Assembly (NCBI GenBank): GCA_045126095.1
Contig: JBGVOA010000475.1
Span: 1 to 40,819, forward strand
Length of the DNA stretch: 40,819 nucleotides
Source of the DNA: Christensenellales bacterium
GTDB taxonomy: Bacteria > Bacillota > Clostridia > Christensenellales > Aristaeellaceae
Direction: 5' to 3'
Part shown: piece by piece, positions 15,401-30,907 of the stretch
How the letters are laid out: every line of letters starts with the position of its first letter
How positions within the stretch are numbered: the first letter of the stretch is position 1
The notes under the pieces: generated by a model
Told to the model about the DNA's origin: nothing
Database searches by the model: none
Seen by the model: only the letters and a program-made list of their open reading frames with translations
Position numbers and translations under genes: made by a program

Positions 15401-16986
15401 ATATTCAGCCCACAGTACGCTGTAATCTGTGGAACGGCAACGATCGCGATCATTATTTCAGAGACATCAAGCCTACTGCGAATGACCCCGTCAAGTACGA
15501 GATACCTATTGCGGTGGATTACACAGATTCCATGTATCTCAGGTTTGTTGTCCCGGAGCAGTGGACAGCCGGATACATATACTTCACAGACGTGAAACTG
15601 GAGAAGGGAAGCAGGGCGACGGACTGGTCGCCCAACCCCGAGGAGTTCCGTGCAGGCAGCGCGGTAACGCTTACGGAGGATGAAGTCAGGATCTCCACGC
15701 CGGAGTTCAATGTGGAGATAGTGAGCGACGACGGCGAGACCAACATGCTTTCCATAGACAAGGACGGCGCGCGGATGCAGTCGCTTGTGGCCCCGGACGT
15801 TGCGCCGCGTTATAACGGGCCCGCAGCGCTGTTTGTGAACAAGTCGGCAACGTCGGAACAGATCGCATCAGGCAACTACTACCGAAGTCTGGCAGATGCG
15901 CTGGCGGCGCTGAGCAACAGATGGATCGGCAATGATGTGGAAGTATCTGTGGCTGCGGGTACTGTCGAATACGGCACTGTGACGCTACAGGGAACAGCCG
16001 GAAGCGGCATGATAACAATCACGGGAGATCTAACCAACCATGCAAAACTGGTGGGTAAGCTGCGGGTAGTATACAGCGGGTGCCCTGTAGTGCTGCAAAA
16101 TATGAATGTAGATTCAATGAGCGGCAATGTGGGCATTGAATGCGCAGGCTCTCAGACCATGGTGATCGTTGAGAATTGCGTGATCACCGGCAAGGGCGTA
16201 GGTGCGGCCGGTGGCAGAGGCGTGCTCGCATTCAGAGGCGCAAAGGCCGACGTGCACAGCTGCGAGCTGTACGACCATGAGAGGGCGCTGTACGCCCAGC
16301 AGGCGGGCGCTATACAGGCCTATGACTGCAAGGGCAACTGCAAGATCGGCGTGAGCAGCGGCATTATCCATGCGTCAGGCACTATGCCCGACACAACGAC
16401 AACCTTCGCGCCTGCAAAGTGGGCGGGCGAAGTGTTCGCAAGCAACGTAAGCGTGGATCAGGGTTCCAGACCTTCTACCGAAGCCGAACCCACGACCGTC
16501 AATGTGACGGCCAGCGCCACGGACTCCTGGTACAGCGCATCGGGAGCATGGCTGAATCAGGACAACGTTATCCGACAGGGCTATTACAGCGGCATGGGCG
16601 AATGGTCGGGCTGCTTCTGGTTCCCGACGGCATCCTTCGGCGGCAAGACCATCAAGACCGGCAGTCTTACGCTCACGCGCACCGCAGGCTCGGGCAAGAG
16701 CGGCGAGGTGACGCTCACACTGTACGGCATAACCGTCGCGTCCGCCTCCGGCGATCCCAATTCGGGCCGGGTGAGCTACGGCGCGCTGGGCACTATCGCC
16801 AATGGCGAAACAAAGCCCTTCACGCTGCCCGCAGCCGCCGCGCAGGCGCTGGCTAACGGCACGATAAAGGGATTCATGCTCTGCGCAAATGACGGCGCGG
16901 TGATGAGCGGCAGAAAGTATTCGACCAACTACTGCAAGATAGGCTCCGCGGGCAGCACGCTGCCGCAGCTGAGCGTGACATATTGA
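12445..16986 (+). CDS. tail-associated protein Tal (baseplate hub with long host-recognition extension)
   Basis: About 1513 aa. A TTG start at 12445 (6 nt after GAGGTGGAG) is preferred over GTG 12433. Features, in order:
- A prophage-tail N-domain.
- An SH3b-like insert (TGRVLHAYKKGTEVIVTDKSNPNWYVVAAPDGRSGYMEVRWL).
- About eleven 10-aa repeats (xVTAEKIxxx).
- Two CBM-like modules, each ending in KLExG(N/S)RxTDWSP.PE.
- A beta-helix-like segment (NVGIECAGSQ...VIVENCVITGKG...). Confidence 0.85.
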   Translation: MINVYAPTADDYSNNGLLVLDPWCVSARIREKLNGEYTLTLELEINARTVEVVNEMVIKAPAPVRFTPQLDIYTPSATEIWKVNTNTRRLSLRTKPSTTTGRVLHAYKKGTEVIVTDKSNPNWYVVAAPDGRSGYMEVRWLQYVRDEYSAPVTTGVIEQHKTKEQLFRVRSVSSTLDTITVEAQHISYDLRRNYIKSAATKGKAGAEAFPVMMAATLSAHEFDAYSDIETEITEDIKRKNPIAALFSDGGLVSMAGGEVLRDNFDIYWVRHIGQDRGVTVAYRKNMAGMDVKIDTNGLVTRIIPVGYSKNNEPIYGDPIDSPHIDEYAQPYIMEYEYKDVKVGSGYKTAAEVKTEIERRARLEYDNGIDLPTVSASVDYVDLQNTDIGVDFNAFTGVFLGDTIRIRHEDYRFDIATEINAYEWDVLLGEYVSLELGSKQASLSDVRISPSQIGNGTLAGRKLAAGTVSGAELGEGSVGENHITENAVTENKIADGAVTADKIIAGSVTAEKIAADSITAEKISAEAVTADKIKAGAVTAAKIDAGAVTAEKIASKSITAGQISTGAITAESGIIANGAIGTAQIADGSITEGKVVSLNADVIKTGTLSADRLLLAGDNGVIYKINATSAGLSMTELSKDQYKHYINGTVIVAKSITAAQIAAKTITSNEILAGTITAAEINVENLFASEATIQALNAMDISGNGYLKLYVTNAVDSVQVGGVNLLRNTGDLKISDYDFDASGADAMGSYSEEDEGFRIVCASQNVRWWLGVLPVTPGAQYGMSVRYRMNSGAAPVEFQYVYRNSSHEAVYYQTSANAVQTVRTEDGWTVLMDVITVPSENDITEVRLAVRTGEDYKLYTCDYSIKKPKLEVGNRVTDWSPAPEDTDEDITSLRSEINLIPGKITLAVNEVQVGGTNLIKTAMDDLISVSVGSKWRDDNKTYYQQSGLGMRMEPHTGEYNILHFLSPVLLSPGNYMLSFWCWTYAIDIQPTVRCNLWNGNDRDHYFRDIKPTANDPVKYEIPIAVDYTDSMYLRFVVPEQWTAGYIYFTDVKLEKGSRATDWSPNPEEFRAGSAVTLTEDEVRISTPEFNVEIVSDDGETNMLSIDKDGARMQSLVAPDVAPRYNGPAALFVNKSATSEQIASGNYYRSLADALAALSNRWIGNDVEVSVAAGTVEYGTVTLQGTAGSGMITITGDLTNHAKLVGKLRVVYSGCPVVLQNMNVDSMSGNVGIECAGSQTMVIVENCVITGKGVGAAGGRGVLAFRGAKADVHSCELYDHERALYAQQAGAIQAYDCKGNCKIGVSSGIIHASGTMPDTTTTFAPAKWAGEVFASNVSVDQGSRPSTEAEPTTVNVTASATDSWYSASGAWLNQDNVIRQGYYSGMGEWSGCFWFPTASFGGKTIKTGSLTLTRTAGSGKSGEVTLTLYGITVASASGDPNSGRVSYGALGTIANGETKPFTLPAAAAQALANGTIKGFMLCANDGAVMSGRKYSTNYCKIGSAGSTLPQLSVTY
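13885..14230 (+). repeat. 30-bp in-frame tandem repeats inside Tal
   Basis: Degenerate 30-nt units (for example gcagtaacggctgataagatcatcgccgga, tccgtcacggcggaaaagatcgcagcggac) encode the AVTAEKI-type decapeptide repeats. Confidence 0.8.
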
Positions 16987-16999
16987 GAGAGGTGAGAAA

Positions 17000-19900
17000 A
17001 TGGATGAATTTGAGGTAATCGGTGGACGACAGCTATACCAATGGGACACGGATCGCAGCATCGAGGTCAGACTCTGCGACGGCGAGACAGTAAATGAGGT
17101 ACATTATGCACATGCAGAGGACGATATCGCACCGGTGGTCAAAGTTCAGGATTACGATGGAAGGATGTTTGCGGATATTCCCAATATACTTTTGCAGCGT
17201 TTTGGTACTCTTAAAGTTTGGGCGGTTGTCTACACCGAAGACGGGCGGCAGACTTTGCGGAATGCATATCTTTCAGTGAGAGCGCGTGCTAAACCTGATG
17301 ATTATGTGTACACCGAGACGGAGATCATGGACTACCGCAAGGTAGCCGAGGATCTGGCGGAGCTGGTACAGCGCGTGGAAGAAATCGAAGAGAACGGCGT
17401 ACAGGGCGGCGGCGCGGTTGCATCGGTAAACGGGAAGACGGGAGAGGTGTATCTGAATGCAGCGGATGTAGGTGCGTTGCCTACCACAGGTGGAAAGCTT
17501 ACAGGCAATCTAACCGTCCCCAGGCTTATAAGTACTGCTGCGGACGCGGATGGAAACATCTACGAAGTTCAATTGTACCCTACGGCTAACGGGGGCCTTT
17601 ACATGCCTTTAAGGCATAATGGAGCAGTTGCGAATGCTATCTCGATGTCGCAGTCTGCAACTACGTTCGGCAAGCCAGTGGCGATAAGCTCTGGCGGTCA
17701 CGGCGGAAAAAATGCCGCCGAGGGCCGTCAAAACCTCAGCTTGTACAGCAAAGAGGAAATCGACGAGAAAATAACAAATACACAGAAAGAAATTGAGCGA
17801 CTTACTGAGGAGATTGCGAAACAAGCCACACCTGAGATGTTCGGTGCAACTGGTGACGGCGTGACCGATGATGCAAGCGCTATTACACAGGCTTTGGCAA
17901 GCGGTCAGAACGTTGTTTTTGATGGCAATAAAACATATGCTGTCGGCTCGACGATCACCATTCCTGCTGATGCGCATGTTGATTTCCGTGGTGCGACGGT
18001 TGTTCCGATGGGAAATCACGATGTTATCAGGGTAATGCCGGGATCGTTCGTAGAAAATTTTATTGTGCGTTGCGGCGGTGTCTCTGGTTGGGATTCGGCG
18101 GCAATCGTGCTTTATGGTGCAGATCATTTCCGCGCAATCAATCCAACGACCATTGCCAACGTCAAGCTGTATTGCAACGAAGGGTCGAACGCAGGACTTA
18201 CTACTAATGGCGTTGGTGTCAAACTGTATGGCGACGATTACGGTCATTTCATTGAGGGTATCACGACCGAGGAAATTAGCACATACGGTTTCGGTGTGGG
18301 TATGCTTTTTGAGGGTGTACCGAATGATGCCGAAAATCCAGCAGGTGGCTTTGTGTTTATTGGCGCGAACAAATTCCGAGGGTATTGGTCTTTTTATGAC
18401 AATGTTGCCATCAAAATGCCATCCATTTTTCCAAAGACACATATCACTAACAACATCTTTACAGATCTACAAATTGAACCGCGCAATAGGCCAAATAAAG
18501 ACGATCAATCCTCTTTCGGTATTTTTTGCAACGGTTTTTCCAACCTATTTGAGGGTTGTCTGTATGACTACTTTTACGGGCATACAGGCGTGTACTTTGG
18601 TAAAGGCAGCAACTCGAATGTTGTAAAGACAACCTCAGGAACTTTTTTTGATCCCGGTTGGATTATGGATTATGGCGTTTGCAACATAGTTACAAAATAC
18701 AGTGCGGAAAATCTCAACCTTGTGCCTTCCATTGCGACCACTCCGCGCATGATTGGTGACCAAGATGACTGTTTTGCTTACATGGACAAACGTGCGACTT
18801 GTACGTTGGAATCGTTAGATGCAAACCCTATTTACGGATCGCTTGCGAATTTGTTCAACCCAGCTCCAACAAAAACAGTGCGATATAGGACAATCAATCC
18901 TAACGAAAACGACAGACGTGCAAAAATCACCATCGAATGCAAAAAAAGCATCAGAAGGCTGGCACAATTGTTCTTGCAGTTTTATACGGCACCAAAGTCT
19001 ATAAGAATCACGTACTACAACGATAAGAGTGCAACGGTTGTTTACGACACTGACAACAACGTCAATACGATTGTAGGCGTTTGCGACTATGTTAAGTATG
19101 GCGAAGATTATCAATACAATGTTGCGAAAATCGTTATTGAACTTGGCGGCTGCAACGCCATTGAGGCTGACGGCTCGGAAACTTACGGCGAGTGGGAAAT
19201 TGTACGCATCATGGGTACGGACAGCTACAACAGCGGTGATGCGTGGCTCGGCAGAGGCGGCGGCGAGGTATACGGAAACGTCTTGTTTAATGCTGGTAAC
19301 GGCGTAGTTTTAACCGCCCCTAACGGCAAATTGTACCAAATTACCGTAGGCGATAACGGTGCTTTAAGCACGACGGAAATTCAGCCGGAAAACATCGAGC
19401 CACCGGAGGTAGCTACGCTCACTCCTACCATGTTGCCCGGTTCGACTTGGTATAACGCTGATGCGTCTGGTGTCGGTCAGAATGAAATAACGAGCGTTAC
19501 CTTTAACGCTGCTTATGAATCAACTGGAACGGAAGACGCAAGTTGGCCTTGTGATAAGGATGTCAACGGCAATATCATGGCATATCGTAACGGAACGGAT
19601 GTAGTGATTAAATCGACAACCGGAAGCGAAGGCGTAAAACTCAACCAGGACAGTAGCTATATGTTTGCTAACGATGGAACGAACGCCAACTTTGCTGCAC
19701 TGACTGAAATAAATGGAACAGAAACTTTGTTGGCCGATGAAAAAACGGACGCAAGCAACTTTTGCAAAAACGCGGCGAATCTTACTGGCATGATTTATGT
19801 ACCGGATGGAGTCACATCGCTTGGTTATGCATTCTCTGGCTGCACCAGTCTTGAAACGCCGCCTGTGCTACCAGACAGTGTGGTAAGCCTTCTCAGCGCG

Positions 19901-20227
19901 TTTGGAGCTTGCTCTTCCTTTAAGACGCTCCCAGAAATTCCCAGCTCCACAACAAACATCAATTACGCATTCAATGGTTGTGTTAAGGCGGAAAGTGGGC
20001 CAAGCCAAATTCCGGCAAAGGTAACTGCTATGGAATACGCATTCCGAAATTGCATCTTAGTCACAGGGACTATTGAGGTCAACGCGGTTAAAATCAACAA
20101 TTATACCGGCTGTTTCTTTAATGCAGGTAGAGATAGTGATGGTATTGTTCTTACTGGCACTAACTCGATGTTGGCTGAACTGGCTGCAACTGACACAAAC
20201 GGTAAGGTTACGGTGGCTACAGCTTAA
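17000..20227 (+). CDS. tail fibre / receptor-binding protein with pectate-lyase-like beta-helix and C-terminal BspA-type leucine-rich repeats
   Basis: 1075 aa. Recognisable elements:
- The fibre motif 'SVNGKTGEVYLNAADVGALP'.
- 'TPEMFGATGDGVTDDASAITQAL', typical of Pectate_lyase_3 / tailspike depolymerase N-caps.
- A C-terminus with LRR_5-like repeats (SLGYAFSGCTSLETPP..., LLSAFGACSSFKTLPEIP..., NINYAFNGC..., MEYAFRNC...). Confidence 0.8.
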   Translation: MDEFEVIGGRQLYQWDTDRSIEVRLCDGETVNEVHYAHAEDDIAPVVKVQDYDGRMFADIPNILLQRFGTLKVWAVVYTEDGRQTLRNAYLSVRARAKPDDYVYTETEIMDYRKVAEDLAELVQRVEEIEENGVQGGGAVASVNGKTGEVYLNAADVGALPTTGGKLTGNLTVPRLISTAADADGNIYEVQLYPTANGGLYMPLRHNGAVANAISMSQSATTFGKPVAISSGGHGGKNAAEGRQNLSLYSKEEIDEKITNTQKEIERLTEEIAKQATPEMFGATGDGVTDDASAITQALASGQNVVFDGNKTYAVGSTITIPADAHVDFRGATVVPMGNHDVIRVMPGSFVENFIVRCGGVSGWDSAAIVLYGADHFRAINPTTIANVKLYCNEGSNAGLTTNGVGVKLYGDDYGHFIEGITTEEISTYGFGVGMLFEGVPNDAENPAGGFVFIGANKFRGYWSFYDNVAIKMPSIFPKTHITNNIFTDLQIEPRNRPNKDDQSSFGIFCNGFSNLFEGCLYDYFYGHTGVYFGKGSNSNVVKTTSGTFFDPGWIMDYGVCNIVTKYSAENLNLVPSIATTPRMIGDQDDCFAYMDKRATCTLESLDANPIYGSLANLFNPAPTKTVRYRTINPNENDRRAKITIECKKSIRRLAQLFLQFYTAPKSIRITYYNDKSATVVYDTDNNVNTIVGVCDYVKYGEDYQYNVAKIVIELGGCNAIEADGSETYGEWEIVRIMGTDSYNSGDAWLGRGGGEVYGNVLFNAGNGVVLTAPNGKLYQITVGDNGALSTTEIQPENIEPPEVATLTPTMLPGSTWYNADASGVGQNEITSVTFNAAYESTGTEDASWPCDKDVNGNIMAYRNGTDVVIKSTTGSEGVKLNQDSSYMFANDGTNANFAALTEINGTETLLADEKTDASNFCKNAANLTGMIYVPDGVTSLGYAFSGCTSLETPPVLPDSVVSLLSAFGACSSFKTLPEIPSSTTNINYAFNGCVKAESGPSQIPAKVTAMEYAFRNCILVTGTIEVNAVKINNYTGCFFNAGRDSDGIVLTGTNSMLAELAATDTNGKVTVATA

Positions 20228-20398: not shown

Positions 20399-20427
20399 AT
20401 ACCCAAATCAAAAAGGAGATGGAACAC

Positions 20428-21456
20428 ATGGTAAAACTCTTTACGGATGATCAGATACTGGGCTGGCTTAAAACGAATCTGATCCTGAGGTACTGGTACG
20501 GCTGTCATGGCCACAAGTGCACCGAAGATCTGCTCCAGCGCAAGCGCAAGCAGTACCCGAGTCACTACACGGACGGACGCATGGCCACGTATCGTAAGCA
20601 CATTGCCGCCGGCGATTCCTGCGCGGACTGCGTGGGCGCCATCAAATACGCATACTGGAGCGACCTGGGCGCGCATGGCCAGAAGTACTGCTCCAACGGC
20701 ATGCCCGATGTGAGCGCCGACGGCCTGTTCCGATTCGCCATGGAGCAGGGCTGCGACTGGGGCGCAATTGACACTATCCCCGAGCGTCCCGGCATTGCGG
20801 TGCGTTTTGCTGGCCACGTGGGCTACTACATGGGCGGCGGCGTCGTGCGCGAATGGCGCGGCTACAAGTTCGGCCGCGTGGACACCAGGCTGAAGGACCG
20901 CAACTGGACACACTGGTATGAACTGCCCTTCGTAGATTACGGCGAGGCAGACCAGCCCGAGGCAGAAACGCCCGTATCCATCGGCACGCTGGGCAGCAGG
21001 CTGCTCAAGCAGGGCCGTAAGGGAGACGACGTCAGGCTCTTGCAGGAGCTGCTGGTGGAGCTGGGTTATGCTCTGCCCAAGTACGGCGCAGACGGCGATT
21101 ACGGCAGCGAGACCATCGCCGCGGTGAAGGCATTCCAGAAGGACAACGGCCTGACCGCCGACGGCAAGTACGGAGAGAAGAGCCACGCGGCGCTCATGGG
21201 CATCCTTGCCGAGCGCGAGGCCCAGGACGGTGACGACGATAACGAGACCATTGAGCCGATATTTGTCGAGATTACTGGCAATACGGTCAATATCCGCGAG
21301 GGCGCCGGCACGCAGCATGATGTGATCACCGTTGTACGCAAGGGCACAATGTGCGTCTGGCGCGCGACGGCGGAAAACGGCTGGCATGCGGTGATCCTGC
21401 CCGGCGGCCGTGAGGGATGGGTCGGCCCGAAATACAGTAAGGTGGTGGCAGCGTAA
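20428..21456 (+). CDS. endolysin: NlpC/P60 endopeptidase + PG_binding_1 + SH3 domain
   Basis: ATG 20428 lies 9 nt after AAAGGAG; the track start 20419 has no spacing. Domain evidence:
- Catalytic-type 'DCVGAIKYAYW' and 'GHVGYYMGGG'.
- 'GDDVRLLQELLVELGY...DGDYGSETIAAVKAFQKDNGLTADG' matches a peptidoglycan-binding repeat.
- A C-terminal SH3-like segment (VNIREGAGTQHDVITVVRKGT...GWHAV). Confidence 0.85.
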   Translation: MVKLFTDDQILGWLKTNLILRYWYGCHGHKCTEDLLQRKRKQYPSHYTDGRMATYRKHIAAGDSCADCVGAIKYAYWSDLGAHGQKYCSNGMPDVSADGLFRFAMEQGCDWGAIDTIPERPGIAVRFAGHVGYYMGGGVVREWRGYKFGRVDTRLKDRNWTHWYELPFVDYGEADQPEAETPVSIGTLGSRLLKQGRKGDDVRLLQELLVELGYALPKYGADGDYGSETIAAVKAFQKDNGLTADGKYGEKSHAALMGILAEREAQDGDDDNETIEPIFVEITGNTVNIREGAGTQHDVITVVRKGTMCVWRATAENGWHAVILPGGREGWVGPKYSKVVAA

Positions 21457-21785
21457 TGGACGGACAGTTCTGCATCATACACGACGAAGATATCAAGGAT
21501 CTGCGTGCGGAGATGGCGGCGAATAACAAGGAACATGAATCGTTTCGCCGTCGCCTCCACGAGCACGACGAGCAGATCAATGCGATACATACGCTGGCTA
21601 CATCGGTTGAAAAGCTGGCCGAGGCCATGAACGAGACCAAGAAGACGGTCGAAAAGATCGACCGCCGCGTGGAGGCTATCGAAAACGAGCCCGCCGACAA
21701 GTGGAAGAAGATCTCCTTTGAGGTCGTCAAGACCATTGTGGTGCTGCTCGTCGGCGCTGCGCTGACATATTTCGGAGTAAAGTGA
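21456..21785 (+). CDS. xhlA: XhlA-like lysis accessory protein (coiled coil plus C-terminal TM)
   Basis: 109 aa. The start overlaps the endolysin stop (TAATG). It has an N-terminal coiled coil and a single C-terminal TM helix (ISFEVVKTIVVLLVGAALTYFGV), as in PBSX XhlA-family proteins. Confidence 0.55.
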   Translation: MDGQFCIIHDEDIKDLRAEMAANNKEHESFRRRLHEHDEQINAIHTLATSVEKLAEAMNETKKTVEKIDRRVEAIENEPADKWKKISFEVVKTIVVLLVGAALTYFGVK

Positions 21786-21796
21786 GGAGAAAAAAC

Positions 21797-22063
21797 ATGA
21801 ATGAACAGAATTTTACCAGACTGTGTAAAACAGTAGTGATGAACTATGCAAACGAGCACATGGACAAAACAGACGGTGTTATCATCACTACTGATGATGT
21901 GTATGTCGTCTGGATGTGCAAAACCCTTCAGAACAGCAAGGCTCTGCTGAGCACGACGCTGAGTGATGGGATGTACTATGAACTCACCTACAATGGCGAC
22001 AAAAAGGAGCTTTATCTGGATGCCTATAAAAAGTTCCAGAATGTCTGCATTAACTGCGAATAA
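21797..22063 (+). CDS. hypothetical protein within the lysis cassette
   Basis: 88 aa. ATG 21797 lies 7 nt after GAGGAG. No motif recognised. Confidence 0.6.
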   Translation: MNEQNFTRLCKTVVMNYANEHMDKTDGVIITTDDVYVVWMCKTLQNSKALLSTTLSDGMYYELTYNGDKKELYLDAYKKFQNVCINCE

Positions 22064-22074
22064 GGAGGAATAAC

Positions 22075-22305
22075 ATGAAACAGATTGCAAAAAAGCTCAC
22101 TGAGTTGATCGACGTCAAGACCATTGTGACGCTGATCGTGATGGTAGTGTTTGCTGTGCTGGCCTTGAGCGGCAAGATCACGGCGGACAATGTGATGTTC
22201 GTCACGACTACTGTGGTAGCGTTCTATTTCGGCACTCAGCACCAGAAAAAGGTTGCTGATAAGGCCAAGGCCGCAGCAGCAGCCGACCAGACCGGAGAGG
22301 AGTGA
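22075..22305 (+). CDS. holin (two TM helices, charged C-terminus)
   Basis: 76 aa with an AAGGAGGAA RBS. TM segments are TIVTLIVMVVFAVLALSG and VMFVTTTVVAFYFG. The tail is basic/acidic (KKVADKAKAAAAADQTGEE). Confidence 0.75.
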   Translation: MKQIAKKLTELIDVKTIVTLIVMVVFAVLALSGKITADNVMFVTTTVVAFYFGTQHQKKVADKAKAAAAADQTGEE

Positions 22306-22310
22306 TATTG

Positions 22311-22562
22311 ATGGGAGCTCGTCGTAAATATCCGCAGTATGACAACTGGACGTCGGAGGAGTTCGCCGGGCTCCTCAGTATCGCAAAACTCAGTCCCGAG
22401 GACAAAGAGATCGCCACACAGTGCATTGTGTGGCGGATGGATCTGATAGACGTGGGCGAGGCCCACAACATGGACCGCAGCACCGTATCCCGCCGACTCG
22501 ACAGACATATCCTGCCGGAGCTGGAGCGGATGATGGTGCGCACAAAAATAGCCGGAGCGTAA
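22311..22562 (+). CDS. small sigma-70 region-4-like HTH protein
   Basis: 83 aa from ATG 22311, 8 nt after GGAGAGGAG. 'LSPEDKEIATQCIVWRMDLIDVGEAHNMDRSTVSRRLDR' looks like a sigma region 4 / LuxR-type HTH. It is the last gene of the rightward late transcript. Confidence 0.55.
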   Translation: MGARRKYPQYDNWTSEEFAGLLSIAKLSPEDKEIATQCIVWRMDLIDVGEAHNMDRSTVSRRLDRHILPELERMMVRTKIAGA

Positions 22563-22580
22563 GCTCCGGCCTCTTTTTTT
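22551..22580. terminator. bidirectional rho-independent terminator
   Basis: GCCGGAGC (22551-22558), loop GTAA, GCTCCGGC (22563-22570), then a T7 run. Lies between convergent genes. Confidence 0.85.
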
Positions 22581-22797
22581 ATACATTTATCAGGTCATCG
22601 AGGGAGCAGTTGAGCGCTGCGGCCAATTTCAGCAGCGATTTAGTGTCCGGGGTGCATTTACCGAGCTCCCAGCGGGAGACGTGCTGATGTAGTACGCCCG
22701 CGAGGTCGGCCAGCTGACGCTGGGTCATTCCGCGCTTCCGCCTGAGGACGGCGATGGGGCTTTCATTGGTCTTGCGGGGCTGTGTGTGGTCAGTCAT
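22579..22797 (-). CDS. XRE-family HTH protein (last gene of a 3-gene minus-strand operon)
   Basis: 'RKRGMTQRQLADLAGVLHQHVSRWELGKCTPDTKSLLKLAAALNCSLDDL' is a classic HTH_3. ATG 22797 (6 nt after GGAGG) is preferred over 22803. It overlaps the upstream gene. Confidence 0.85.
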   Translation of the reverse strand: MTDHTQPRKTNESPIAVLRRKRGMTQRQLADLAGVLHQHVSRWELGKCTPDTKSLLKLAAALNCSLDDLINV

Positions 22798-23128
22798 TGT
22801 CATCCTCCTCGCCTTGGGTTAATCTGGAATGGATTTCATCGATGATGTCTCTGCGGGTGTCCTCACACCGTCTATCCAACCAACGCTCGATCAGATCGAC
22901 TACATTGATGCATTTGCCCTCCATATTGTAGTCTCTCGGGAGGTATGCTTCACCGACGCCGTACACGTTAATTTCAACGACTCCGTTATCGTCAACGCGG
23001 ACAATAACATTGGCGAGAGTTTTCACGAAATCGTGAAATATGCCACTCGATCCGGCGGGGCGATACCAGTGCCTAAACCATGTGAGGCTAGGCAGCGCAG
23101 AATTTATTGCGTGTTTGGTGATTTTCAT
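22790..23128 (-). CDS. hypothetical acidic protein
   Basis: 112 aa with an AGGAGG RBS 8 nt upstream. Acidic C-terminus (LTQGEEDDND). No motif recognised. Confidence 0.7.
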   Translation of the reverse strand: MKITKHAINSALPSLTWFRHWYRPAGSSGIFHDFVKTLANVIVRVDDNGVVEINVYGVGEAYLPRDYNMEGKCINVVDLIERWLDRRCEDTRRDIIDEIHSRLTQGEEDDND

Positions 23129-23150
23129 TGTATTTTCCTCCTGCTATTTA

Positions 23151-23543
23151 TTATGCGCCAATGAGACCTCTCTCCACGTACTCATGAAATTCCGGATCGG
23201 CTGCGAGTTCCTCGCGAGAAACATAGCCGCGCTCAAGGGCATCACGATAGAAGGCGCACTTGCCAAACCGCTGTTCGCGATATTCGATAATGAATGCGGC
23301 GTCGTCTGCACGTTCATAAATGAGACACGGAACAGAAATTGCGCGGACACGCTGCTCGTCGCGAGAAATTCTCTCCTGCAGTTTTTCTGCCTTTGCATTG
23401 TCGCCGGAGGCAACGAGATTTTCAACGCGGCTGCGACCGGAGTCAATATTGCGCTGGATCATTGCGATATCATTATTGTATTTCTCGATCCAATTGCGCT
23501 GGATGTCCTTTGCCCATGATATCTGCTTTTCAGTACCCTTCAT
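23151..23543 (-). CDS. hypothetical protein (first gene of the minus-strand operon)
   Basis: 130 aa with a GGAGGAG RBS 6 nt upstream. N-terminal 'TEKQISWAKDIQ' motif, then a helical region. No function recognised. Confidence 0.7.
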   Translation of the reverse strand: MKGTEKQISWAKDIQRNWIEKYNNDIAMIQRNIDSGRSRVENLVASGDNAKAEKLQERISRDEQRVRAISVPCLIYERADDAAFIIEYREQRFGKCAFYRDALERGYVSREELAADPEFHEYVERGLIGA

Positions 23544-23589
23544 TTTTGTCTCCTCCGCTCATTTTCGTTTACTCCCTTGATCTGATACT

Positions 23590-23618
23590 ATTATACATCA
23601 CAAATGGTGAATAATCAA
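23590..23618 (-). promoter_or_regulatory. consensus-like promoter of the 23543-22579 operon
   Basis: On the minus strand: TTGATT (23618-23613), a 17-nt spacer, TATAAT (23595-23590). Confidence 0.65.
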
Positions 23619-23674
23619 TAAGGAAAATGCATTTTTGAAATAAAAATATAGGACGCACATAAATGAGCGTACAT

Positions 23675-23727
23675 TGCACGCATGTGCAGCCCACTTGCAC
23701 CCGTGAAAATCTGGAAAATGCGATAAT
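23675..23727 (+). promoter_or_regulatory. inverted repeat plus extended -10 element upstream of the five-gene cassette
   Basis: TGCAC-GCAT-GTGCA inverted repeat at 23675-23688. Another TTGCAC at 23695-23700. TGcGATAAT at 23719-23727, about 18 nt before the RBS GGAGG (23745-23749). Confidence 0.45.
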
Positions 23728-23757
23728 CAACCCATAGAAACGACGGAGGTGATGCGC

Positions 23758-24210
23758 GTGGCATATGGATATAACCCCAGTTACAACCCTAGCGTCAACT
23801 ACTTTGGCAATCCGTATACGCCGATGATGAATACGGCGGGGCCTATGCAGTCGCCGCCGCAGATGCAGCAGCCCATACAGATGGGGCAGAGCGCGCAGCA
23901 GATGGGCGATCAGCAGCCGGGAACGCTCTTCGCCAGATACGTAGCCAGCCGCGAAGAGGCGGTCGCGGCCATGGTGGCGACCGACGGCAGGCTGAACCTG
24001 TTTGTGGATGAACAGCACGGCATGATCTACGGCAAAGCGGTGGCTCCCAACGGCGCGTCTGCGTTCCGGGAGTTTGCTTACCGGCAGCCCGTGCAGCAGC
24101 AGGAACCGCAGCAGGCACAGCGCTGGGCACCCATGGAAGTGGTCGACCAGCTGCGCGCAGAACTCCAGCAGATAAAGGACATGATGAGCGGAAGGAGTGA
24201 GCAGGAATGA
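23758..24210 (+). CDS. Q/P/N/M-rich low-complexity protein (cassette gene 1)
   Basis: 150 aa from GTG 23758, 8 nt after GGAGG. The alternative start ATG 23752 is too close to the RBS. N-terminal 'YGYNPSYNPSVNYFGNPYTPMMNTAGPMQSPPQMQQPIQMGQSAQQMGDQQ'. Q-rich C-terminal coil. Confidence 0.7.
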   Translation: MAYGYNPSYNPSVNYFGNPYTPMMNTAGPMQSPPQMQQPIQMGQSAQQMGDQQPGTLFARYVASREEAVAAMVATDGRLNLFVDEQHGMIYGKAVAPNGASAFREFAYRQPVQQQEPQQAQRWAPMEVVDQLRAELQQIKDMMSGRSEQE

Positions 24211-24431
24211 TGAATCCTATTCAGTTGATACAGATGCTTCAGCAAAGCGGCAACCCCATGCAGATGCTCACCGGCATAGCCCAGACCAATCCGCAGCTTG
24301 GACAGGTGCTTCAGATGGTCAATGGCAAGACACCCGCGGAAATGGAGAGGATGGCCTATGACATAGCAAAACAGCGTGGTGTAGACCTTAATCTGTTCGC
24401 GAAACAACTTGGCATAAGGCTCCCTAAATGA
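24207..24431 (+). CDS. small Q-rich protein (cassette gene 2)
   Basis: 74 aa. ATGA overlap with gene 1. Contains 'NPIQLIQMLQQSGNPMQMLTGIAQTNPQLGQVLQMV'. Confidence 0.65.
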   Translation: MMNPIQLIQMLQQSGNPMQMLTGIAQTNPQLGQVLQMVNGKTPAEMERMAYDIAKQRGVDLNLFAKQLGIRLPK

Positions 24432-24482
24432 TCGTAACGGCGAATGCCGTTCGAAATACAGACACACGGAGGTGGAACACAA

Positions 24483-25241
24483 ATGAGTGACGACTTTGCA
24501 ATGGGCTACGCACTCGGACAGGACAACAACAGCAACTGTAACGACGGCTTCGGTGGCGGCGGCATCGCTGGCATAATCTGGATCATCGTGATCGCCGCGC
24601 TGTTCGGCGGCGGCTTTGGCTGGGGCGGAGGTTTCGGCGGCTTTGGCGGCGGAGCTGGCCTTCAGGGCATGGCGACCCGCGCCGACATCAACGCCGGCTT
24701 CCAGTTCCAGGACCTGCAGAACGGCGTCCGCGGAATCCAGCAGGGCCTGTGTGATGGCTTTTACGCAGTCAATACAGGCACGCTTAATGGTTTCCACGCG
24801 GTAGATCAGGCGATCAGCAACCTTGGCTATCAGCAGAAGGACTGCTGCTGCGAGACCCAGCGTCTGATCGAGCGCGGCTTCTGCGACACCAACTACAACC
24901 TGGCCACCAACGCCAGCAACATCGTGCAGGCCGGTCATGCGGACACCGACCGTGTGATCGCGAAGCTGGACGCAATGGAGGCAGCGCGCCAGACAAGGGA
25001 GAACGAGGCGCTTCGTCTTGAGAATCAGACCCTGCGCTTCCAGGCCTTTCAGGCCCAGCAGAACAACTTCTTCTCGGCTAATCAGGATGCCCAGACTGCG
25101 GAGTTGATCCGCAGGCTGCGCACTCCCGAGGCAGTACCGGCCTACGTAGTGCCCAATCCCAACTGCTGCTACGGCAACCCCGTGGGCATCGGATACGCGG
25201 GCGGCTATAACAACGGCTGCGGCTGCGGTTCCTGCTGCTGA
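24483..25241 (+). CDS. Gly-rich single-TM protein with Cys-rich tail (cassette gene 3)
   Basis: 252 aa from ATG 24483, 7 nt after GGAGGTGG. Contains 'GFGGGGIAGIIWIIVIAALFGGGFGWGGGFGGFGGGAG', a 'DCCCE' motif and a coiled coil. The C-terminus is 'NPNCCYGNPVGIGYAGGYNNGCGCGSCC'. Confidence 0.7.
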   Translation: MSDDFAMGYALGQDNNSNCNDGFGGGGIAGIIWIIVIAALFGGGFGWGGGFGGFGGGAGLQGMATRADINAGFQFQDLQNGVRGIQQGLCDGFYAVNTGTLNGFHAVDQAISNLGYQQKDCCCETQRLIERGFCDTNYNLATNASNIVQAGHADTDRVIAKLDAMEAARQTRENEALRLENQTLRFQAFQAQQNNFFSANQDAQTAELIRRLRTPEAVPAYVVPNPNCCYGNPVGIGYAGGYNNGCGCGSCC

Positions 25242-25261
25242 GTGACGACGGTTGACTATTC

Positions 25262-25289
25262 GGGCGGCGGGGTATAACCCCGCCGGCCC
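25262..25289 (+). promoter_or_regulatory. GC-rich intercistronic stem-loop
   Basis: GGGCGGCGGGG / CCCCGCCGGCCC: 11 bp with one bulge and loop TATAA. No T run. Lies between cassette genes 3 and 4. Confidence 0.5.
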
Positions 25290-25306
25290 TGAGAAGGAGG
25301 GATAAT

Positions 25307-25705
25307 ATGAGCGGTAATTGCAAACTTTGCAGACGCCTGATCATATCTCAGGCCGTGACTTTTGCCGGTGGAAACCTTCTGATCAACCTGCCGGCAGGAT
25401 CCTATAACAATTGCGAAAAATACTGCATCGTGGTCGCACAGGCGATCCCGGCAGATACGACCATCACCGCCCCGGTTTTTATAACCATCGGCGACGGCAC
25501 CGTCCAGTACCCGCTCAACAACTGCAAATGCGCCCAGCTGACGGCCTGCGCGATCCGCACTCGCACGAAGTACACCACGATCGTCGGCACCACGCCCACC
25601 GGCGGTGCGTTCAAGCTGGTCGGCGGCGCCAGCTGCGCCCCTAATTACAACCTGACGGCCATTGATGGCACCGCTCCCGCGGCGCCTGCGGAAGGAGGTG
25701 CATAA
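25307..25705 (+). CDS. Cys-rich 132-aa protein (cassette gene 4)
   Basis: AAGGAGGG RBS. Nine Cys, including CKLC, NNCEKYC and NNCKCAQLTAC. No motif recognised. Confidence 0.7.
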   Translation: MSGNCKLCRRLIISQAVTFAGGNLLINLPAGSYNNCEKYCIVVAQAIPADTTITAPVFITIGDGTVQYPLNNCKCAQLTACAIRTRTKYTTIVGTTPTGGAFKLVGGASCAPNYNLTAIDGTAPAAPAEGGA

Positions 25706-25706
25706 G

Positions 25707-26360
25707 ATGAAAATGAGCCCGGTAACGCGCATGATGGTGATGAGCGATCGGTATAAAAAATCCAGCAATGGCGAACGCCAGCAAGACGGCAGACATCAGA
25801 TGGAGCAGCCGCGCTACAATGAGGACTACGTGGGGCGCAAGGCCCGGGAGCGTCAGGGTATGCGCCACGGCGGCGAAGATCCTATGGAGATGTCCGGACG
25901 CGACCCGTATTCCAGCCGCGGCATGATGGGTTATGGCCATGAACGCCGTCATTACGACGATGACGACGAGGAGTATGGAGGTAAACCGCAGCGTATGTAC
26001 GCCGCCGGTATGGCATGGACCGAGGGCCATGAAAAGAACCACAAAAAGGAGCACAAAGAGGTAGATGAGGAATGCGCCATGAAATGGGTCAGGGAAATGA
26101 AGGCGGCGGACAACAGCCAGATGCCACATTTCCGCCCGGATCTCGCCGAGCAGATGCGTAAAGCCCATTGTCCCGACTGTAAGCCCTGGGAGTGGTTCAC
26201 GGCGATCAACATGATGTACGCGGACTACATCGAGGTCGCAAAAAAGCTGGGAGTCAACCGCGACGAGTGCTACGCGCTCATGGCCAAAGCCTTCCTGATG
26301 GACGAGGATGCAGGTCCGAATAAACTCAGCAAATACATGGAGGAGATCCCAAAGAAGTAA
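25707..26360 (+). CDS. His/Asp/Glu/Arg/Met-rich protein with structured C-terminal half (cassette gene 5)
   Basis: 217 aa from ATG 25707 after GAAGGAGGTG. Contains 'GHERRHYDDDDEEYGG' and 'HEKNHKKEHKEVDEEC'. The C-half includes 'HCPDCKPWEWFTAINMMYADYIEVAKKLGV'. Confidence 0.7.
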   Translation: MKMSPVTRMMVMSDRYKKSSNGERQQDGRHQMEQPRYNEDYVGRKARERQGMRHGGEDPMEMSGRDPYSSRGMMGYGHERRHYDDDDEEYGGKPQRMYAAGMAWTEGHEKNHKKEHKEVDEECAMKWVREMKAADNSQMPHFRPDLAEQMRKAHCPDCKPWEWFTAINMMYADYIEVAKKLGVNRDECYALMAKAFLMDEDAGPNKLSKYMEEIPKK

Positions 26361-26730: not shown

Positions 26731-28176
26731 TTAAAAACGCCAATGAACAAGGATATTATTATCATCGACTTCCACATAATCGACAATTGAGCAGAGGGCC
26801 TGATGGATCTCAGCGGGAGTACCGGAAGCGCGGACGGCGCAAAACTGAGTGGCTAGAGAGACTATGTCTTCGGTGGACATGATTTTTGTCTGTGCCTGCA
26901 AATCGGACAGTTCGGACTGTAGCGCCTGTTTTTCAGCGTTGAGCGGCTCGATCTTGCTGCCGATCAGTTCGTAGGGTATATTGCCTGCAGCATAGAGGTC
27001 CATCAGCCTGCTCAGCTGGCCGGAGATCTGGTCGATGCGTGTTTTGAGCGCTGCTTGTTTTTTCGTAGTATCAACAGACTTCCGCAAGCCGTCGATATAT
27101 TGCGGATTGTCGGCAAGAGCGTCAATCTGCGCATATATAATATCGTCAAGCTCAGTATCGCGGTAGTTAAGGTTGCGGCAGTTTGGATCACGTACAAGCT
27201 TTTTATCGCACTTAGATCGACTGTAGCACATATAGTATCCGTATCGGTAAGACCGGGAACTTCCATCAAGCCGCTTGGGATCTGAATGAGCCTTACGATA
27301 GTGATATTTTGCCCCGCATTGCTTGCAGTAAAGCAAGCCGCCGAGGGGCGCGGTATATTTCTTACCGGGCATATAGTGTTCGTTTTTGACTGACCGTTCA
27401 TATAGCACCTGCTGTATGCCGTTAAACTCATCGACTGTGAAGGTTGGTTCATGCAGGCCCGGATACCACTCACCGGCAAACGGGACTTCACCTAAATACG
27501 CGCGCTTTTGCAGCATGCGCCGCAGTGTAGTTACGGTCCACGGCTTACCCTTGATCCGATAGCCCTTTTCGTTAAAGCTGTTGACGATGTCGATTAAAGG
27601 CTCTCTGTTGAGAGTGCGTATTCCAGCTTCGCGTACCTGCATGTTTTCATGTTCATCTTTTATGAGTATACCGGCGGTCTCCTTATCGGTGCTTTTATAA
27701 TATCCGGTTGGTGCAGTGCCGTGCCACAATCCGGCCTTAGCACGTCCAACGAGACCATCGTGTGTGCGTTCCTTGATCTTCTCGCGTTCCAGCTCGGCAA
27801 AAACGGCCAGGATGCCGACCGTTGCGCGGCCGAATGCAGATGAAGTGTCAAAGGCTTCAGCACGCGAGACGAACGCAGCGTCATGCTGCTTAAAAGTATT
27901 AATCAGATAGAGAGTATCCTGCAAGGAGCGGCTGAGGCGGTCGAGCTTATCAACAAGGACAATATCAGCATTGTCGACATTGGCGACCATCTCCTGTAGT
28001 CCGGGGCGCGATGTAGTTGCGCCAGAATAGCCCGGATCAACATATACTTCTGCTACGAGCCAGTCCATCGCATCGGCGTACTTGTTCAGACGTTCCAGCT
28101 GCTCAGGGATTGAGTAGCCTTCCTCTGCCTGCGTTCGCGTCGACACACGGGCGTAGATAAAGCAGCGCTTTTTCAT
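26731..28176 (-). CDS. int: large serine recombinase (phage integrase)
   Basis: 481 aa. The N-terminal resolvase catalytic domain 'CFIYARVSTRTQAEEGYSIPEQ' carries the nucleophile Ser. It also has a recombinase domain, a Cys-rich zinc-ribbon region (YCKQCGAKYHY...YYMCYSRSKCDKK) and a C-terminal coiled coil. AGGAGG RBS. Confidence 0.95.
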   Translation of the reverse strand: MKKRCFIYARVSTRTQAEEGYSIPEQLERLNKYADAMDWLVAEVYVDPGYSGATTSRPGLQEMVANVDNADIVLVDKLDRLSRSLQDTLYLINTFKQHDAAFVSRAEAFDTSSAFGRATVGILAVFAELEREKIKERTHDGLVGRAKAGLWHGTAPTGYYKSTDKETAGILIKDEHENMQVREAGIRTLNREPLIDIVNSFNEKGYRIKGKPWTVTTLRRMLQKRAYLGEVPFAGEWYPGLHEPTFTVDEFNGIQQVLYERSVKNEHYMPGKKYTAPLGGLLYCKQCGAKYHYRKAHSDPKRLDGSSRSYRYGYYMCYSRSKCDKKLVRDPNCRNLNYRDTELDDIIYAQIDALADNPQYIDGLRKSVDTTKKQAALKTRIDQISGQLSRLMDLYAAGNIPYELIGSKIEPLNAEKQALQSELSDLQAQTKIMSTEDIVSLATQFCAVRASGTPAEIHQALCSIVDYVEVDDNNILVHWRF

Positions 28177-29355: not shown

Positions 29356-30405
29356 TCAGAAGTCAATGCACTCCATTAAGACGGCATCAACTGCATCAGC
29401 ATCGCTTACAGCTCTATGTGCGTTTTTGTTGCTATATCCAATATGATTACACAGAGACTCAAGGCTGTAACTGCTGAGCTTAAAGGTCTTTTTTGCGATT
29501 GCGAGCGTATCGGCATAACCGGCGGTAAGCGGCATTGAGTGATGGTTAAGCGCTTCTTCAAGGAACGACATGTCAAATGGGGCGTTGTGGGCAACCAGAG
29601 TTACGACTCCATCGCCGAGGAAACTCAGGAAGTCTGCCAGGGCCGCGTCAATGGTCGGAGCATCTTTCACCATATCGTCCGTTATACCATTCACTTTAGT
29701 CGCTTCTGCCGGGATCTTCCGCTGAGGATTGACCAGAGTGCTGAAACGGGCCACTTCCTGGCACTGATTGTCAAAGCGGATAGCGCCGATTTCGATTATG
29801 CGGTCGCGCTTTGCTGACAATCCCGTAGTTTCCAGATCAAACGTGACATATCCGTCCTTGACCGCTCTTTTCTTGAAGCCCGAAGCAGTAAGCGCGGTAA
29901 AGGTGCAGCAGGATCCGGAAGACGACCCGGATTTGCTGTACAAGCTGGCAGCACGACTGCGGGAACGGAAATGGAAATCCTTTGCGGATTCCTCAAGAAG
30001 CAGGGCAATGCGCCGCTCCAGATCCGCGAATACCATTTTGGAACTGTCTTCAGCCTGCGACTTGATAAGTTCAGCCGAGGAGAACATGGATTCCGCTTTG
30101 CTGTTGAGCTCATTCGCGTTGTCAATGATCTGCTTGGCGTCTTGCCTAGCCGCATTTATCAGCTGATCCGCCTCATTCTTTGCGGTTGCTTTGATTCGCT
30201 CCGCCTTGTATTCGGCATCCTTGAGTATCCTGATCGCTTCGTCATTGGCGTCGGGTATTGCATCGTATACCTTTTTGAACGACCTGAGCGTGGCAAGCTC
30301 CGTCTCATAATCCTTGATGCGCAGGCTGTGGCAAGACTGGCAGTAACCGTCAAAATCCAGCTTAAGAGTAATTCCGCTGTTTTGACATTTCACACATCGC
30401 GGCAT
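29356..30405 (-). CDS. zinc-ribbon / coiled-coil / DEDDh 3'-5' exonuclease fusion protein
   Basis: 349 aa from ATG 30405, 9 nt after AGGAG. Layout:
- N-terminal CxxC-x17-CxxC (CVKCQNSG...YCQSC).
- About 100 aa of coiled coil (KAERIKATAKNEADQLINAARQDAKQIIDNANELNSKAES).
- A Ser-rich linker.
- Exo motifs 'FDLETTG', 'VAHNAPFDMSFL' and 'HRAVSDADAV'. Confidence 0.85.
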   Translation of the reverse strand: MPRCVKCQNSGITLKLDFDGYCQSCHSLRIKDYETELATLRSFKKVYDAIPDANDEAIRILKDAEYKAERIKATAKNEADQLINAARQDAKQIIDNANELNSKAESMFSSAELIKSQAEDSSKMVFADLERRIALLLEESAKDFHFRSRSRAASLYSKSGSSSGSCCTFTALTASGFKKRAVKDGYVTFDLETTGLSAKRDRIIEIGAIRFDNQCQEVARFSTLVNPQRKIPAEATKVNGITDDMVKDAPTIDAALADFLSFLGDGVVTLVAHNAPFDMSFLEEALNHHSMPLTAGYADTLAIAKKTFKLSSYSLESLCNHIGYSNKNAHRAVSDADAVDAVLMECIDF

Positions 30406-30427
30406 ACCCATCAACTCCTTTTAACAG

Positions 30428-30526: not shown

Positions 30527-30859
30527 TCAGGGTTTCCGATGTACCTGCAGTACCAGGGCCATGAAGCCCCTTGCAAGACGCTGGCCTTCTTCGGTGAGAT
30601 TATCGAAGTCTAGGGCAAGCTGCATTGCTTCTGCTGTTACAGGGTTGCTGGATAACTGGTGCATCTTCTCATAATCATCCAAATCATCGAGCGTGAGGCC
30701 CAGAGCATGAGCGATGCTCTTTAACGAGGATATGCGAGGATCGGTGGTTATGCCGGACATTATCTTGGCGACAGTATTCTTTGGAACACCAGATTTGTCG
30801 GCTAACTCGTCGATGGTCATATCAAGAGCGATTCGCCGTTGAGTCAATAACCTGTACAC
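30527..30859 (-). CDS. CI-like XRE-family repressor (no S24 peptidase domain)
   Basis: 110 aa from GTG 30859, 5 nt after AGGTGA; the track TTG at 30889 lies over the promoter. HTH 'MTIDELADKSGVPKNTVAKIMSG'. Divergent from the Cro-like gene. Confidence 0.8.
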   Translation of the reverse strand: MYRLLTQRRIALDMTIDELADKSGVPKNTVAKIMSGITTDPRISSLKSIAHALGLTLDDLDDYEKMHQLSSNPVTAEAMQLALDFDNLTEEGQRLARGFMALVLQVHRKP

Positions 30860-30878
30860 TTTTATCACCTCGATTGAT

Positions 30879-30907
30879 ATTATAAGCAATAAATTCCATT
30901 AAGTCAA
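30879..30907 (-). promoter_or_regulatory. leftward switch promoter
   Basis: On the minus strand: TTGACT (30907-30902), a 17-nt spacer, TATAAT (30884-30879). Confidence 0.7.

Follow-up and report, generated by a model that had tools for sequence, protein, structure and literature searches.

A candidate autoregulated anti-defence operon with an AcrIE7-like protein in a temperate phage of Clostridia

Introduction

Why should a phage genome carry a small operon with its own promoter and its own regulator, read against the direction of its neighbours? The question is raised by contig JBGVOA010000475.1 of a Christensenellales bacterium (assembly GCA_045126095.1), a stretch of 40,819 nucleotides, called the window below, which by its gene content looks like the complete genome of a temperate siphovirus-type phage. 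On its minus strand lie three open reading frames (ORFs), the last of which encodes a helix-turn-helix (HTH) protein of the XRE type. An initial annotation, made from the sequence, likened this layout either to operons of anti-CRISPR genes with their associated regulators (acr-aca) or to toxin-antitoxin modules. We conclude, with a probability of roughly 0.6, that the three genes form an acr-aca-type anti-defence operon under its own control, situated in the accessory region of a temperate phage of Clostridia.

Results

Anatomy of the operon

The promoter TTGATT-17-TATAAT, which the initial annotation had placed ahead of three minus-strand genes, is present. So are the gene for a 130-amino-acid (aa) protein, the 112-aa acidic gene with its EEDDND tail and, overlapping the latter, the XRE HTH gene of about 72 aa. 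In the direction of transcription the features are the following (related loci carry L numbers, related proteins P numbers).

23624-23635, minus strand: perfect 12-bp A/T-rich palindrome AAAATGCATTTT, 5 nt upstream of the -35 element
23613-23618, minus strand: -35 element TTGATT (TTGACT in L029 and L030, TTGACA in most sister operons)
23596-23609, minus strand: predicted operator CACCATTTGTGATG, a 14-bp imperfect palindrome in the 3' part of the -35/-10 spacer, abutting the -10 element
23590-23595, minus strand: -10 element TATAAT
23544-23589, minus strand: 5' untranslated region (UTR), with a block AGTATCAGATCAAGGGAG common to the window and L025
23151-23543, minus strand: ORF1, 130 aa, AcrIE7-like helical protein, ribosome-binding site GGAGGAG
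22790-23128, minus strand: ORF2, 112 aa, acidic alpha/beta protein of a small family, ribosome-binding site AGGAGG
22579-22797, minus strand: ORF3, XRE HTH protein, 72 aa (74 aa from the alternative start at 22803), Pfam HTH_3 with E 1.5e-14
22550-22571, both strands: bidirectional intrinsic terminator, a 9-bp GC-rich hairpin with a T run, directly after ORF3

The promoter has a 17-nt spacer and matches the consensus at 10 of 12 positions. Promoter-like sites between 21500 and 25000 are not more frequent than chance would give (3 found, 2.8 expected). The one ahead of the operon occupies the only sizeable intergenic gap, and in the near-identical copies L029 and L030 it reads TTGACT-17-TATAAT. 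The terminator is common to the operon and to the convergent late/lysis transcription unit of the plus strand. All three minus-strand ORFs are real genes, each with homologues elsewhere, and small cargo genes and an HTH gene share here one transcription unit on a mobile element. The whole operon recurs, near-identical, in four other metagenome contigs (L028-L031). No Rfam family was matched at 22300-23900.

ORF3 almost certainly starts at its second ATG, at 22797, because its ribosome-binding site GAGGAGG abuts the first ATG (22803) and L028 does not have that first ATG at all. Read from there, the protein has 72 aa, and its gene shares 8 nt, ATGACTGA, with the end of ORF2.

The leader has a structure of its own. 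Two tandem units of Shine-Dalgarno sequence and ATG, GGAGTAAACGAAAATGA and GGAGGAGACAAAAATGA, lie 19 nt apart (23530-23575, minus strand). An upstream ORF of 10 codons, MSGGDKNEGY, begins at the first ATG (23562) and overlaps the start of ORF1 in another frame. This duplication may be the scar of an ORF1 insertion, because L025, a relative without ORF1, is also without the duplication. Upstream of the -35 element, the palindrome AAAATGCATTTT is kept in L029 and L030, and L017, L019 and L033 carry A/T tracts at the same position. Possible roles for it are those of an UP element, of a further binding site or of a component of a divergent promoter serving the plus-strand gene at 23749.

ORF1 and the anti-CRISPR protein AcrIE7

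ORF1 has no match in Pfam, PHROGs, NCBIfam or PADLOC. Pattern and profile searches assembled a family of 206 clusters of proteins of about 90-135 aa (most of them about 100 aa), found in phages of Clostridia on phage and prophage contigs. The members share the N-terminus MKGTEKQIxWAEDI and a second motif, DDAxxIIxxR. Some relatives match only phrog_16123 and phrog_6775, both function-unassigned, and AcrIE7 itself has no PHROG match.

When a family profile made of 15 sequences was compared with 177,635 PDB sequences, AcrIE7 was the best match (E 0.009). A profile of 101 sequences again put AcrIE7 on top (E 5.6e-5), with two stretches matched in the right order, and among solved structures this was the only match of the family. 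Direct alignment of the family with AcrIE7 by hhalign gave a probability of 95.5 %, a P value of 1.6e-8 and a score of 48.8; the best of 200 shuffled AcrIE7 sequences reached 16.3, and each motif scores alone too. The AcrIE7 sequence used was checked against PDB entry 9LA6.

AcrIE7 is a monomeric helical protein, with a fold described as unique, that binds single-stranded DNA (ssDNA) and shields it from Cas3 (PMC12002350). It was found originally upstream of the HTH gene aca1; its mutants K6W and R49W are abolished in ssDNA binding and weakened in protection from Cas3 (PMC12002350). Both residues have their counterparts in our alignment. K6 aligns with K6 of ORF1, invariant in 101 of 101 sequences, and R49 aligns with R89, an arginine in 79 of 101. 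Judged by these sequence comparisons, ORF1 and AcrIE7 are distantly homologous, at any rate across the module that builds the ssDNA-binding patch.

The AlphaFold model of ORF1 (predicted local distance difference test, pLDDT, 93.4) has six helices, two of which form a long hairpin. DSSP assigns single bridge residues at positions 2 and 81, one in each motif region and with the partner not given, which would fit two motifs that touch each other in the model. Foldseek comparison, which the initial annotation had proposed for the proteins of the operon, returned for ORF1 only generic long-hairpin proteins, ESCRT-III first (E of at least 0.05). We discarded these matches as generic helical hairpins without meaning.

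In some phage contigs ORF1-family genes occur twice on the same strand, adjacent to each other in L007 (5714-6273) and about 0.9 kb apart in L010 (5887-7595). A 134-aa variant of the family has an extra N-terminal segment, MKKYNLSKIMKRAWELVKK.

A palindrome in the promoter spacer

Not only in the window but at 13 more loci, the last 14 bases of the spacer of a near-consensus promoter form a palindrome of the type TACCCA-NN-TGGGTA, always in the same register, and the operons end in an HTH gene of the ORF3 type (loci listed: L017, L019, L025, L029, L030, L033, L038, L039, L041-L045, L049). Elements from this set read as follows.

Window, 23609-23596: CACCATTTGTGATG, 4/7 palindromic pairs
L029 and L030: CACCATTTGTGGTG, CACCA-N4-TGGTG, 5/5 outer pairs
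L025: TACCCAATTGGGTA, 7/7 palindromic pairs
L033: TACCCATCTGGGTA, 6/7 palindromic pairs
L017: TACCGAATTAGGTA, 6/7 palindromic pairs
L019: TACCCATTTGGGTG, 5/7 palindromic pairs

Pair 5/10 is C-G in some lineages and A-T in others, with complementarity kept. In a blind test, the HTH alignment alone served as bait in IMG/VR and brought up 15 new loci. Eight of them (L038, L039, L041, L042, L043, L044, L045, L049) carry, upstream and in the same orientation, a promoter that reads TTGACA-17-TATAAT or nearly so, together with the palindrome. At least five of seven palindromic pairs were found at 10 of 65 promoter-like sites in this test, where about 0.85 would be expected.

The element CACCATTTGTGATG occurs once in the window. 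From this single occurrence ORF3 looks like a dedicated autoregulator and not a global one. We take CACCATTTGTGATG to be the likely operator.

A different operator had been proposed at this promoter, the inverted repeat TGTGAT-N10-ATCAGA (23602-23581). The repeat is present, with 5 of 6 positions complementary, but it is not conserved: its left half reads TGTGGT in L029 and L030 and TTGGGT in L025. An inverted-repeat search gave nothing at 23602-23581, and by our estimate about five such repeats are expected by chance per 100 nt when spacing is free. It overlaps the 14-bp palindrome through its TGTGAT half only. Its own halves are unconserved, and we rejected it as the operator.

One regulator subfamily behind variable cargo

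ORF3 begins with a basic N-terminal arm, PRKTNESP; the exact protein is absent from the contig index searched. The initial annotation had suggested a comparison with known Aca and antitoxin families. Compared with solved structures, it resembles the P22 C2 repressor (E 1.5e-5) and, on the antitoxin side, HigA (E 5.9e-5), while the nearest Aca is Aca3 with an E of 0.3. Matches to MqsA and HipB are weak, and those in PADLOC are generic HTH matches only.

The HTH proteins that close related operons form a distinct subfamily of 72-81 aa with the arm PR(K/P)xxN(D/E)SP...R and the motif (I/V)SRWE. Their arm is constant across different cargo. The distance from promoter to HTH gene runs from 349 to 3404 nt, and gene content differs by locus.

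Window: ORF1 and ORF2
L025: ORF2
L017: ORF1-family gene and small genes
L019: ORF1-family gene, four small genes and a gene for a 308-aa zinc-ribbon/HTH protein
L033: ORF2 fusion and two function-unassigned genes
L044 and L045: ORF1-family gene
L042: gene for an acidic 78-aa protein, also present in L017 and L019
L041: eight genes, including one for a full ArdC anti-restriction protein

The cargo thus varies next to a conserved regulator in the window, L025, L017, L019, L033, L038, L039, L041, L042, L044 and L049. An ORF1-family gene stands first again in L044 and L045, two loci that were found through the HTH rather than through ORF1. The ArdC gene of L041 (2725-3603, on an IMG/VR phage contig) encodes ArdcN (E 1.5e-21) and the zincin metallopeptidase domain MPTase-PolyVal (E 4e-38), and lies two genes upstream of the small HTH gene. 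The other cargo tested had no Pfam matches. A conserved autoregulator accompanied by variable small genes is the architecture of acr-aca loci (PMC12658196). The related operons show this arrangement, and across them two kinds of cargo gene have counter-defence homologues. ORF3 is presumed to be an Aca-like autorepressor.

The related operons occupy varied positions in their genomes, beside terminase genes (L001, L019) or just upstream of a recombinase gene (L033). Further HTH genes come after the operon in L017 and L019, and in L017 so do genes resembling early genes.

The very acidic 78-aa protein (…DDSSWGEGDFDGIVADLESNDPDFQIVEEREIDD) is encoded in three operons (L017, 8632-8868; L019, 5587-5823; L042, 3654-3890) and has no Pfam match. 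It could be a further anti-defence candidate, possibly a DNA mimic.

ORF2, an acidic protein with a new predicted fold

ORF2 carries a charge of -6, has an isoelectric point (pI) of 5.1 (family median 5.4) and ends in EEDDND. It has no match in Pfam, PHROGs, NCBIfam or PADLOC. A word-indexed search found relatives in two clusters, and an exhaustive HMMER search (E<=1e-3) raised 37 cluster representatives. Three of these, P0129, P0133 and P0151, are long repeat proteins and were dropped as repeat-driven artefacts; the remainder, a family of about 30 clusters, are mostly of about 100-120 aa and align over the whole length. The alignment contains no conserved residues of catalytic type and is too divergent for a pattern-based locus search.

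The model of ORF2 (pLDDT 92.8, predicted template modelling score 0.84) is of the order alpha-alpha-beta-beta-alpha-beta-alpha-alpha. The Foldseek-type comparison found it no fold neighbour in PDB (best E 1.2, template modelling, TM, score 0.21) and no toxin fold, and the ORF2 profile had no PDB match either. Among viral models there was one match, the unnamed protein A0A2R2ZHC9 (E 5e-3, TM 0.62).

ORF2 has an HTH gene right behind it in three lineages, those of the window, L025 and L026. In L025 (73 % identical) the order is ORF2, HTH gene and an 89-aa gene, ORF1 is absent, and the -10 element and 5' UTR block of the window type drive ORF2 directly; the contig begins inside the promoter spacer. 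In L026, ORF2 and the HTH gene are convergent with a holin gene. Looser arrangements exist as well. A protein with a fused ORF2 domain stands first in the L033 operon, whose last gene is the same small HTH gene, with a serine recombinase gene right behind it; 1.2 kb and two other genes lie between the ORF2 homologue and the HTH. L034 has an ORF2 homologue and no HTH gene downstream. In P0150, finally, the ORF2 domain is fused to a C-terminal HTH, and acr-aca fusions of this sort are known. ORF1 and ORF2 occur together only in the lineage of the window. We regard ORF2 as a candidate second anti-defence protein.

The phage genome around the operon

The initial annotation had placed the operon directly after the lysis genes. 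This is right as to position, but a gene for an 86-aa protein stands between the holin-like genes and the terminator. The remainder of the window is organized as follows.

382-20227, plus strand: terminase through tail genes
20419-21456: endolysin with PG_binding_1 and SH3 domains
21456-22305: three small genes, for a coiled-coil protein, a DUF6275 protein and a 76-aa protein (phrog_13256, function unassigned)
22302-22562, plus strand: last gene of the lysis cassette, 86-aa protein similar to sigma-70 region 4 or to an HTH regulator (phrog_36, E 3.4e-4)
23749-26360, plus strand: cluster of function-unassigned genes between the operon and the serine recombinase gene
26731-28176, minus strand: serine recombinase
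29356-30414, minus strand: 352-aa protein with a C-terminal RNase_T/DnaQ-like 3'-5' exonuclease domain (E 1.3e-36)
30527-30889, minus strand: CI-like HTH protein

The coiled-coil protein and the 76-aa protein look holin-like in our own reading. Small genes like the 86-aa one lie directly 3' of the holin gene in L017 (6729-7091) and in L022 (Sigma70_r4_2, weak), and this sigma-region-4-like gene may be a conserved late regulator. The cluster at 23749-26360 encodes a 153-aa Gln/Pro-rich protein (phrog_21718), a 74-aa protein, a 265-aa Gly/Cys-rich protein with the C-terminus CGCGSCC (phrog_16490, E 5.9e-52), a 132-aa protein and a 232-aa protein with DUF7841. The exonuclease-domain protein sits in the minus-strand block on the lysogeny side, with the recombinase on one side and the CI-like repressor on the other. 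From about 30916 on, the plus-strand genes are presumably those of early functions and replication.

The operon thus lies in an accessory region, with lysis genes on one side and the integrase (the serine recombinase) on the other. It is outside the replication module, which starts at 33934, and antiparallel to the neighbouring genes. Its G+C content is 0.50, compared with 0.55 in the structural genes. Within the latter, the content falls to 0.44 at 18001-19000, inside a 1075-aa gene of the tail region (17000-20227), and a receptor-binding module may have been exchanged in this stretch.

No DNA or protein match to the window was found in 50,697 GenBank phage records, and the GTDB representative genomes contain no close relatives of ORF2, the serine recombinase or AcrIE7. 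The distant relatives L016-L018 come from metagenome-assembled genomes of Clostridiales, Subdoligranulum and Oscillospiraceae.

Discussion

What speaks for an anti-defence operon is of several kinds: the homology of ORF1 to AcrIE7 at two motifs, an HTH subfamily that closes modular, variable gene arrays, a conserved palindrome in the promoter spacer and an ArdC gene in a sister operon. The acr-aca reading offered by the initial annotation is strengthened by each of these, and only the inverted repeat proposed with it has to be given up.

Several observations weigh on the other side. The alignment of ORF1 with AcrIE7 covers about 40 residues, that is, the two motifs, and the hairpin between these motifs is longer in ORF1 than in AcrIE7 by as much as about 40 residues. 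AcrIE7 was not among the top 50 Foldseek matches of the ORF1 model, although AlphaFold models of AcrIE7 are known from its authors to deviate from the crystal structure (PMC12002350). The motif module of ORF1 is also found as part of larger phage proteins (in phrog_16123, within a profile of 368 positions), and so it may be a general module for binding ssDNA or a partner, with uses beyond anti-CRISPR. ORF3 shows no specific similarity to any Aca of solved structure, which is the form in which membership of Aca1-Aca13 was assessed. The palindrome of the window is the weakest of the set (4/7 in the common register, 5/6 in an alternative one, TCACCA-T-TTGTGA), and 7 of the 15 loci of the blind test are without a clear one, six having none and L035 a doubtful candidate.

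Could the operon serve the lysogen instead of the infecting phage? As a prophage moron it would act in superinfection exclusion or defence against other phages, with the HTH keeping expression low. The interval between lysis genes and integrase is a classic moron site, the operon has its own sigma-70 promoter and terminator and a G+C content below that of the structural genes, and its proteins are small and function-unassigned. Yet neither ORF1 nor ORF2 matches a PADLOC defence family, the only informative homologies of the cassette family, AcrIE7 and ArdC, are to counter-defence, and the related operons are not confined to the site of lysogenic conversion (L001, L019, L033). We consider this explanation unlikely. 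Still less probable is that ORF1 belongs to ordinary phage physiology, as a general ssDNA-binding protein or an accessory of replication or recombination, with ORF2 as its partner and ORF3 as a regulator of early genes. AcrIE7 binds ssDNA without sequence specificity (PMC12002350), the ORF1 module is embedded in larger phage proteins, and further HTH genes (in L017 also early-like genes) follow the operon in L017 and L019, all of which would suit such a role. The operon is, however, modular and can be dispensed with: the closest relative, L025, does without ORF1, which is joined with ORF2 in the window's own lineage only. It also lies outside the replication module and antiparallel to its neighbours, and its single operator in the window does not suit a global regulator.

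The toxin-antitoxin alternative of the initial annotation would make ORF2 and ORF3 a toxin-upstream type II pair like HigBA or MqsRA, or an abortive-infection pair, and ORF1 an unrelated passenger. Its gene order, a small protein and then an overlapping HTH, is that of HigBA; ORF3 is similar to the antitoxin HigA and weakly to MqsA and HipB, and the HTH gene directly follows ORF2 in three lineages. RNase toxins of such modules are basic, whereas ORF2 and its family are acidic, with no residues of catalytic type conserved and no match to a toxin sequence. Since the ORF2 model matches no PDB fold, the protein as modelled would not be RelE/HigB-, MqsR- or HicA-like. Strict pairing fails in L034, which has no downstream HTH, and in L033, where two genes intervene. 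The same HTH subfamily stands behind quite different cargo, and because its arm is the same whatever the cargo, the arm is not a segment that neutralises one toxin; and a protein of 72 aa such as ORF3 is too short to include a toxin-binding domain as well. ORF1 and ORF2 match no PADLOC model, and ORF3 only generic HTH models. Evidently, the toxin-antitoxin alternative has lost ground, and we hold it to be improbable.

How would an acr-aca-type operon of this kind work? On entry of the DNA, the host sigma-70 RNA polymerase would fire the near-consensus promoter without any phage factor. ORF1, made first, would be an AcrIE7-like helical protein that keeps the Lys/Arg patch of AcrIE7, and it might sequester ssDNA intermediates, such as the displaced strand of the CRISPR R-loop, from a host nuclease such as Cas3. 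ORF2, acidic, of a new fold and free of enzyme-like motifs, may act as a second inhibitor by stoichiometric binding. ORF3, translationally coupled to ORF2, would accumulate, bind the 14-bp spacer palindrome as a dimer and shut the promoter off. Known Aca proteins shut off their own promoters in this manner. The roles given here to ORF1, ORF2 and ORF3, including inhibition of any defence system, are what we infer from the operon's anatomy, the two-motif homology, the modular architecture and the conserved palindrome, all of which are directly observed.

If this is true, AcrIE7 gains a large Firmicutes branch, and ORF2 becomes a new candidate inhibitor with a confident model and no structural relative. 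Regulator and operator signature could then be searched for further anti-defence genes in gut viromes by guilt by association, the HTH subfamily serving as bait as aca1 did in Pseudomonas. To our knowledge, few anti-defence genes have been described from phages of strictly anaerobic gut Clostridia; such genes bear on phage-host dynamics in the gut, and small inhibitors of defence systems are wanted as tools. If the reading is wrong, the operon is an ordinary accessory operon of a prophage. A wider proposal we put forward only tentatively, as somewhat more doubtful than not: that the small-XRE subfamily and the spacer palindrome mark widespread, undescribed anti-defence islands in phages of gut Clostridia, that ORF2 is the first member of an anti-defence family new in kind and in fold, and that sequestration of ssDNA or R-loops in the manner of AcrIE7 is an ancient strategy shared between phyla, represented by hundreds of proteins in Firmicutes phages, and no Pseudomonas oddity.

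Comparison with known systems

AcrIE7 (PDB 9KJB, 9LA6; 106 aa, ORF1 130 aa) blocks Cas3 cleavage in type I-E and I-C systems. Both proteins are all-helical and acidic. Both begin at residue 1 with M-x-G-S/T-E-K-Q-I/V-x-W-A-x-x-I, have D-A-x-x-I-I-x-x-R in common, keep the ssDNA-binding residues K6 and R49 in the alignment and have their genes on a mobile element, upstream of a gene for an XRE-type HTH protein. They differ in their C-terminal halves, which do not align, and in host phylum, Pseudomonadota (Pseudomonas aeruginosa) for AcrIE7 and Firmicutes for ORF1. AcrIE7 is a seven-helix bundle, and the ORF1 model shows six helices.

With the acr-aca operons acrIF1-aca1 of phage JBD30, acrIF8-aca2 of phage ZF40 and acrIF11-aca7, our operon shares a strong promoter, at least one small unrelated cargo gene, an HTH gene in last place, variable cargo beside a conserved regulator and a palindromic operator, here a predicted one, overlapping the promoter. 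ORF3, in contrast, belongs to none of the named Aca families compared (nearest the solved Aca3, E 0.3), and its predicted operator lies wholly within the -35/-10 spacer. The acrIIA1-type loci of Listeria prophages, also in temperate phages of Firmicutes, combine an HTH autorepressor with variable acr genes and include HTH-Acr fusions, which the ORF2-HTH fusion P0150 parallels. Sequence similarity to AcrIIA1 is absent, however, and the regulator is here a separate last gene.

HigBA and MqsRA have in common with the operon a small protein first, an overlapping XRE HTH next and probable autoregulation, whereas here the upstream protein is acidic, of a new predicted fold and loosely paired, and the HTH has no toxin-binding domain. 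ArdC (ArdcN and MPTase-PolyVal) is absent from the window and not homologous to ORF1 or ORF2; it is cargo of the sister operon L041, closed by the same HTH subfamily, and it binds ssDNA, as ORF1 may do too. A literature search by N-terminal peptides found no paper with the motifs of the ORF proteins. The acr-aca architecture itself is already known. What appears to be new is the link between a large family of Firmicutes phage proteins and AcrIE7, the ORF2 family with its fold, the HTH subfamily and the operator signature.

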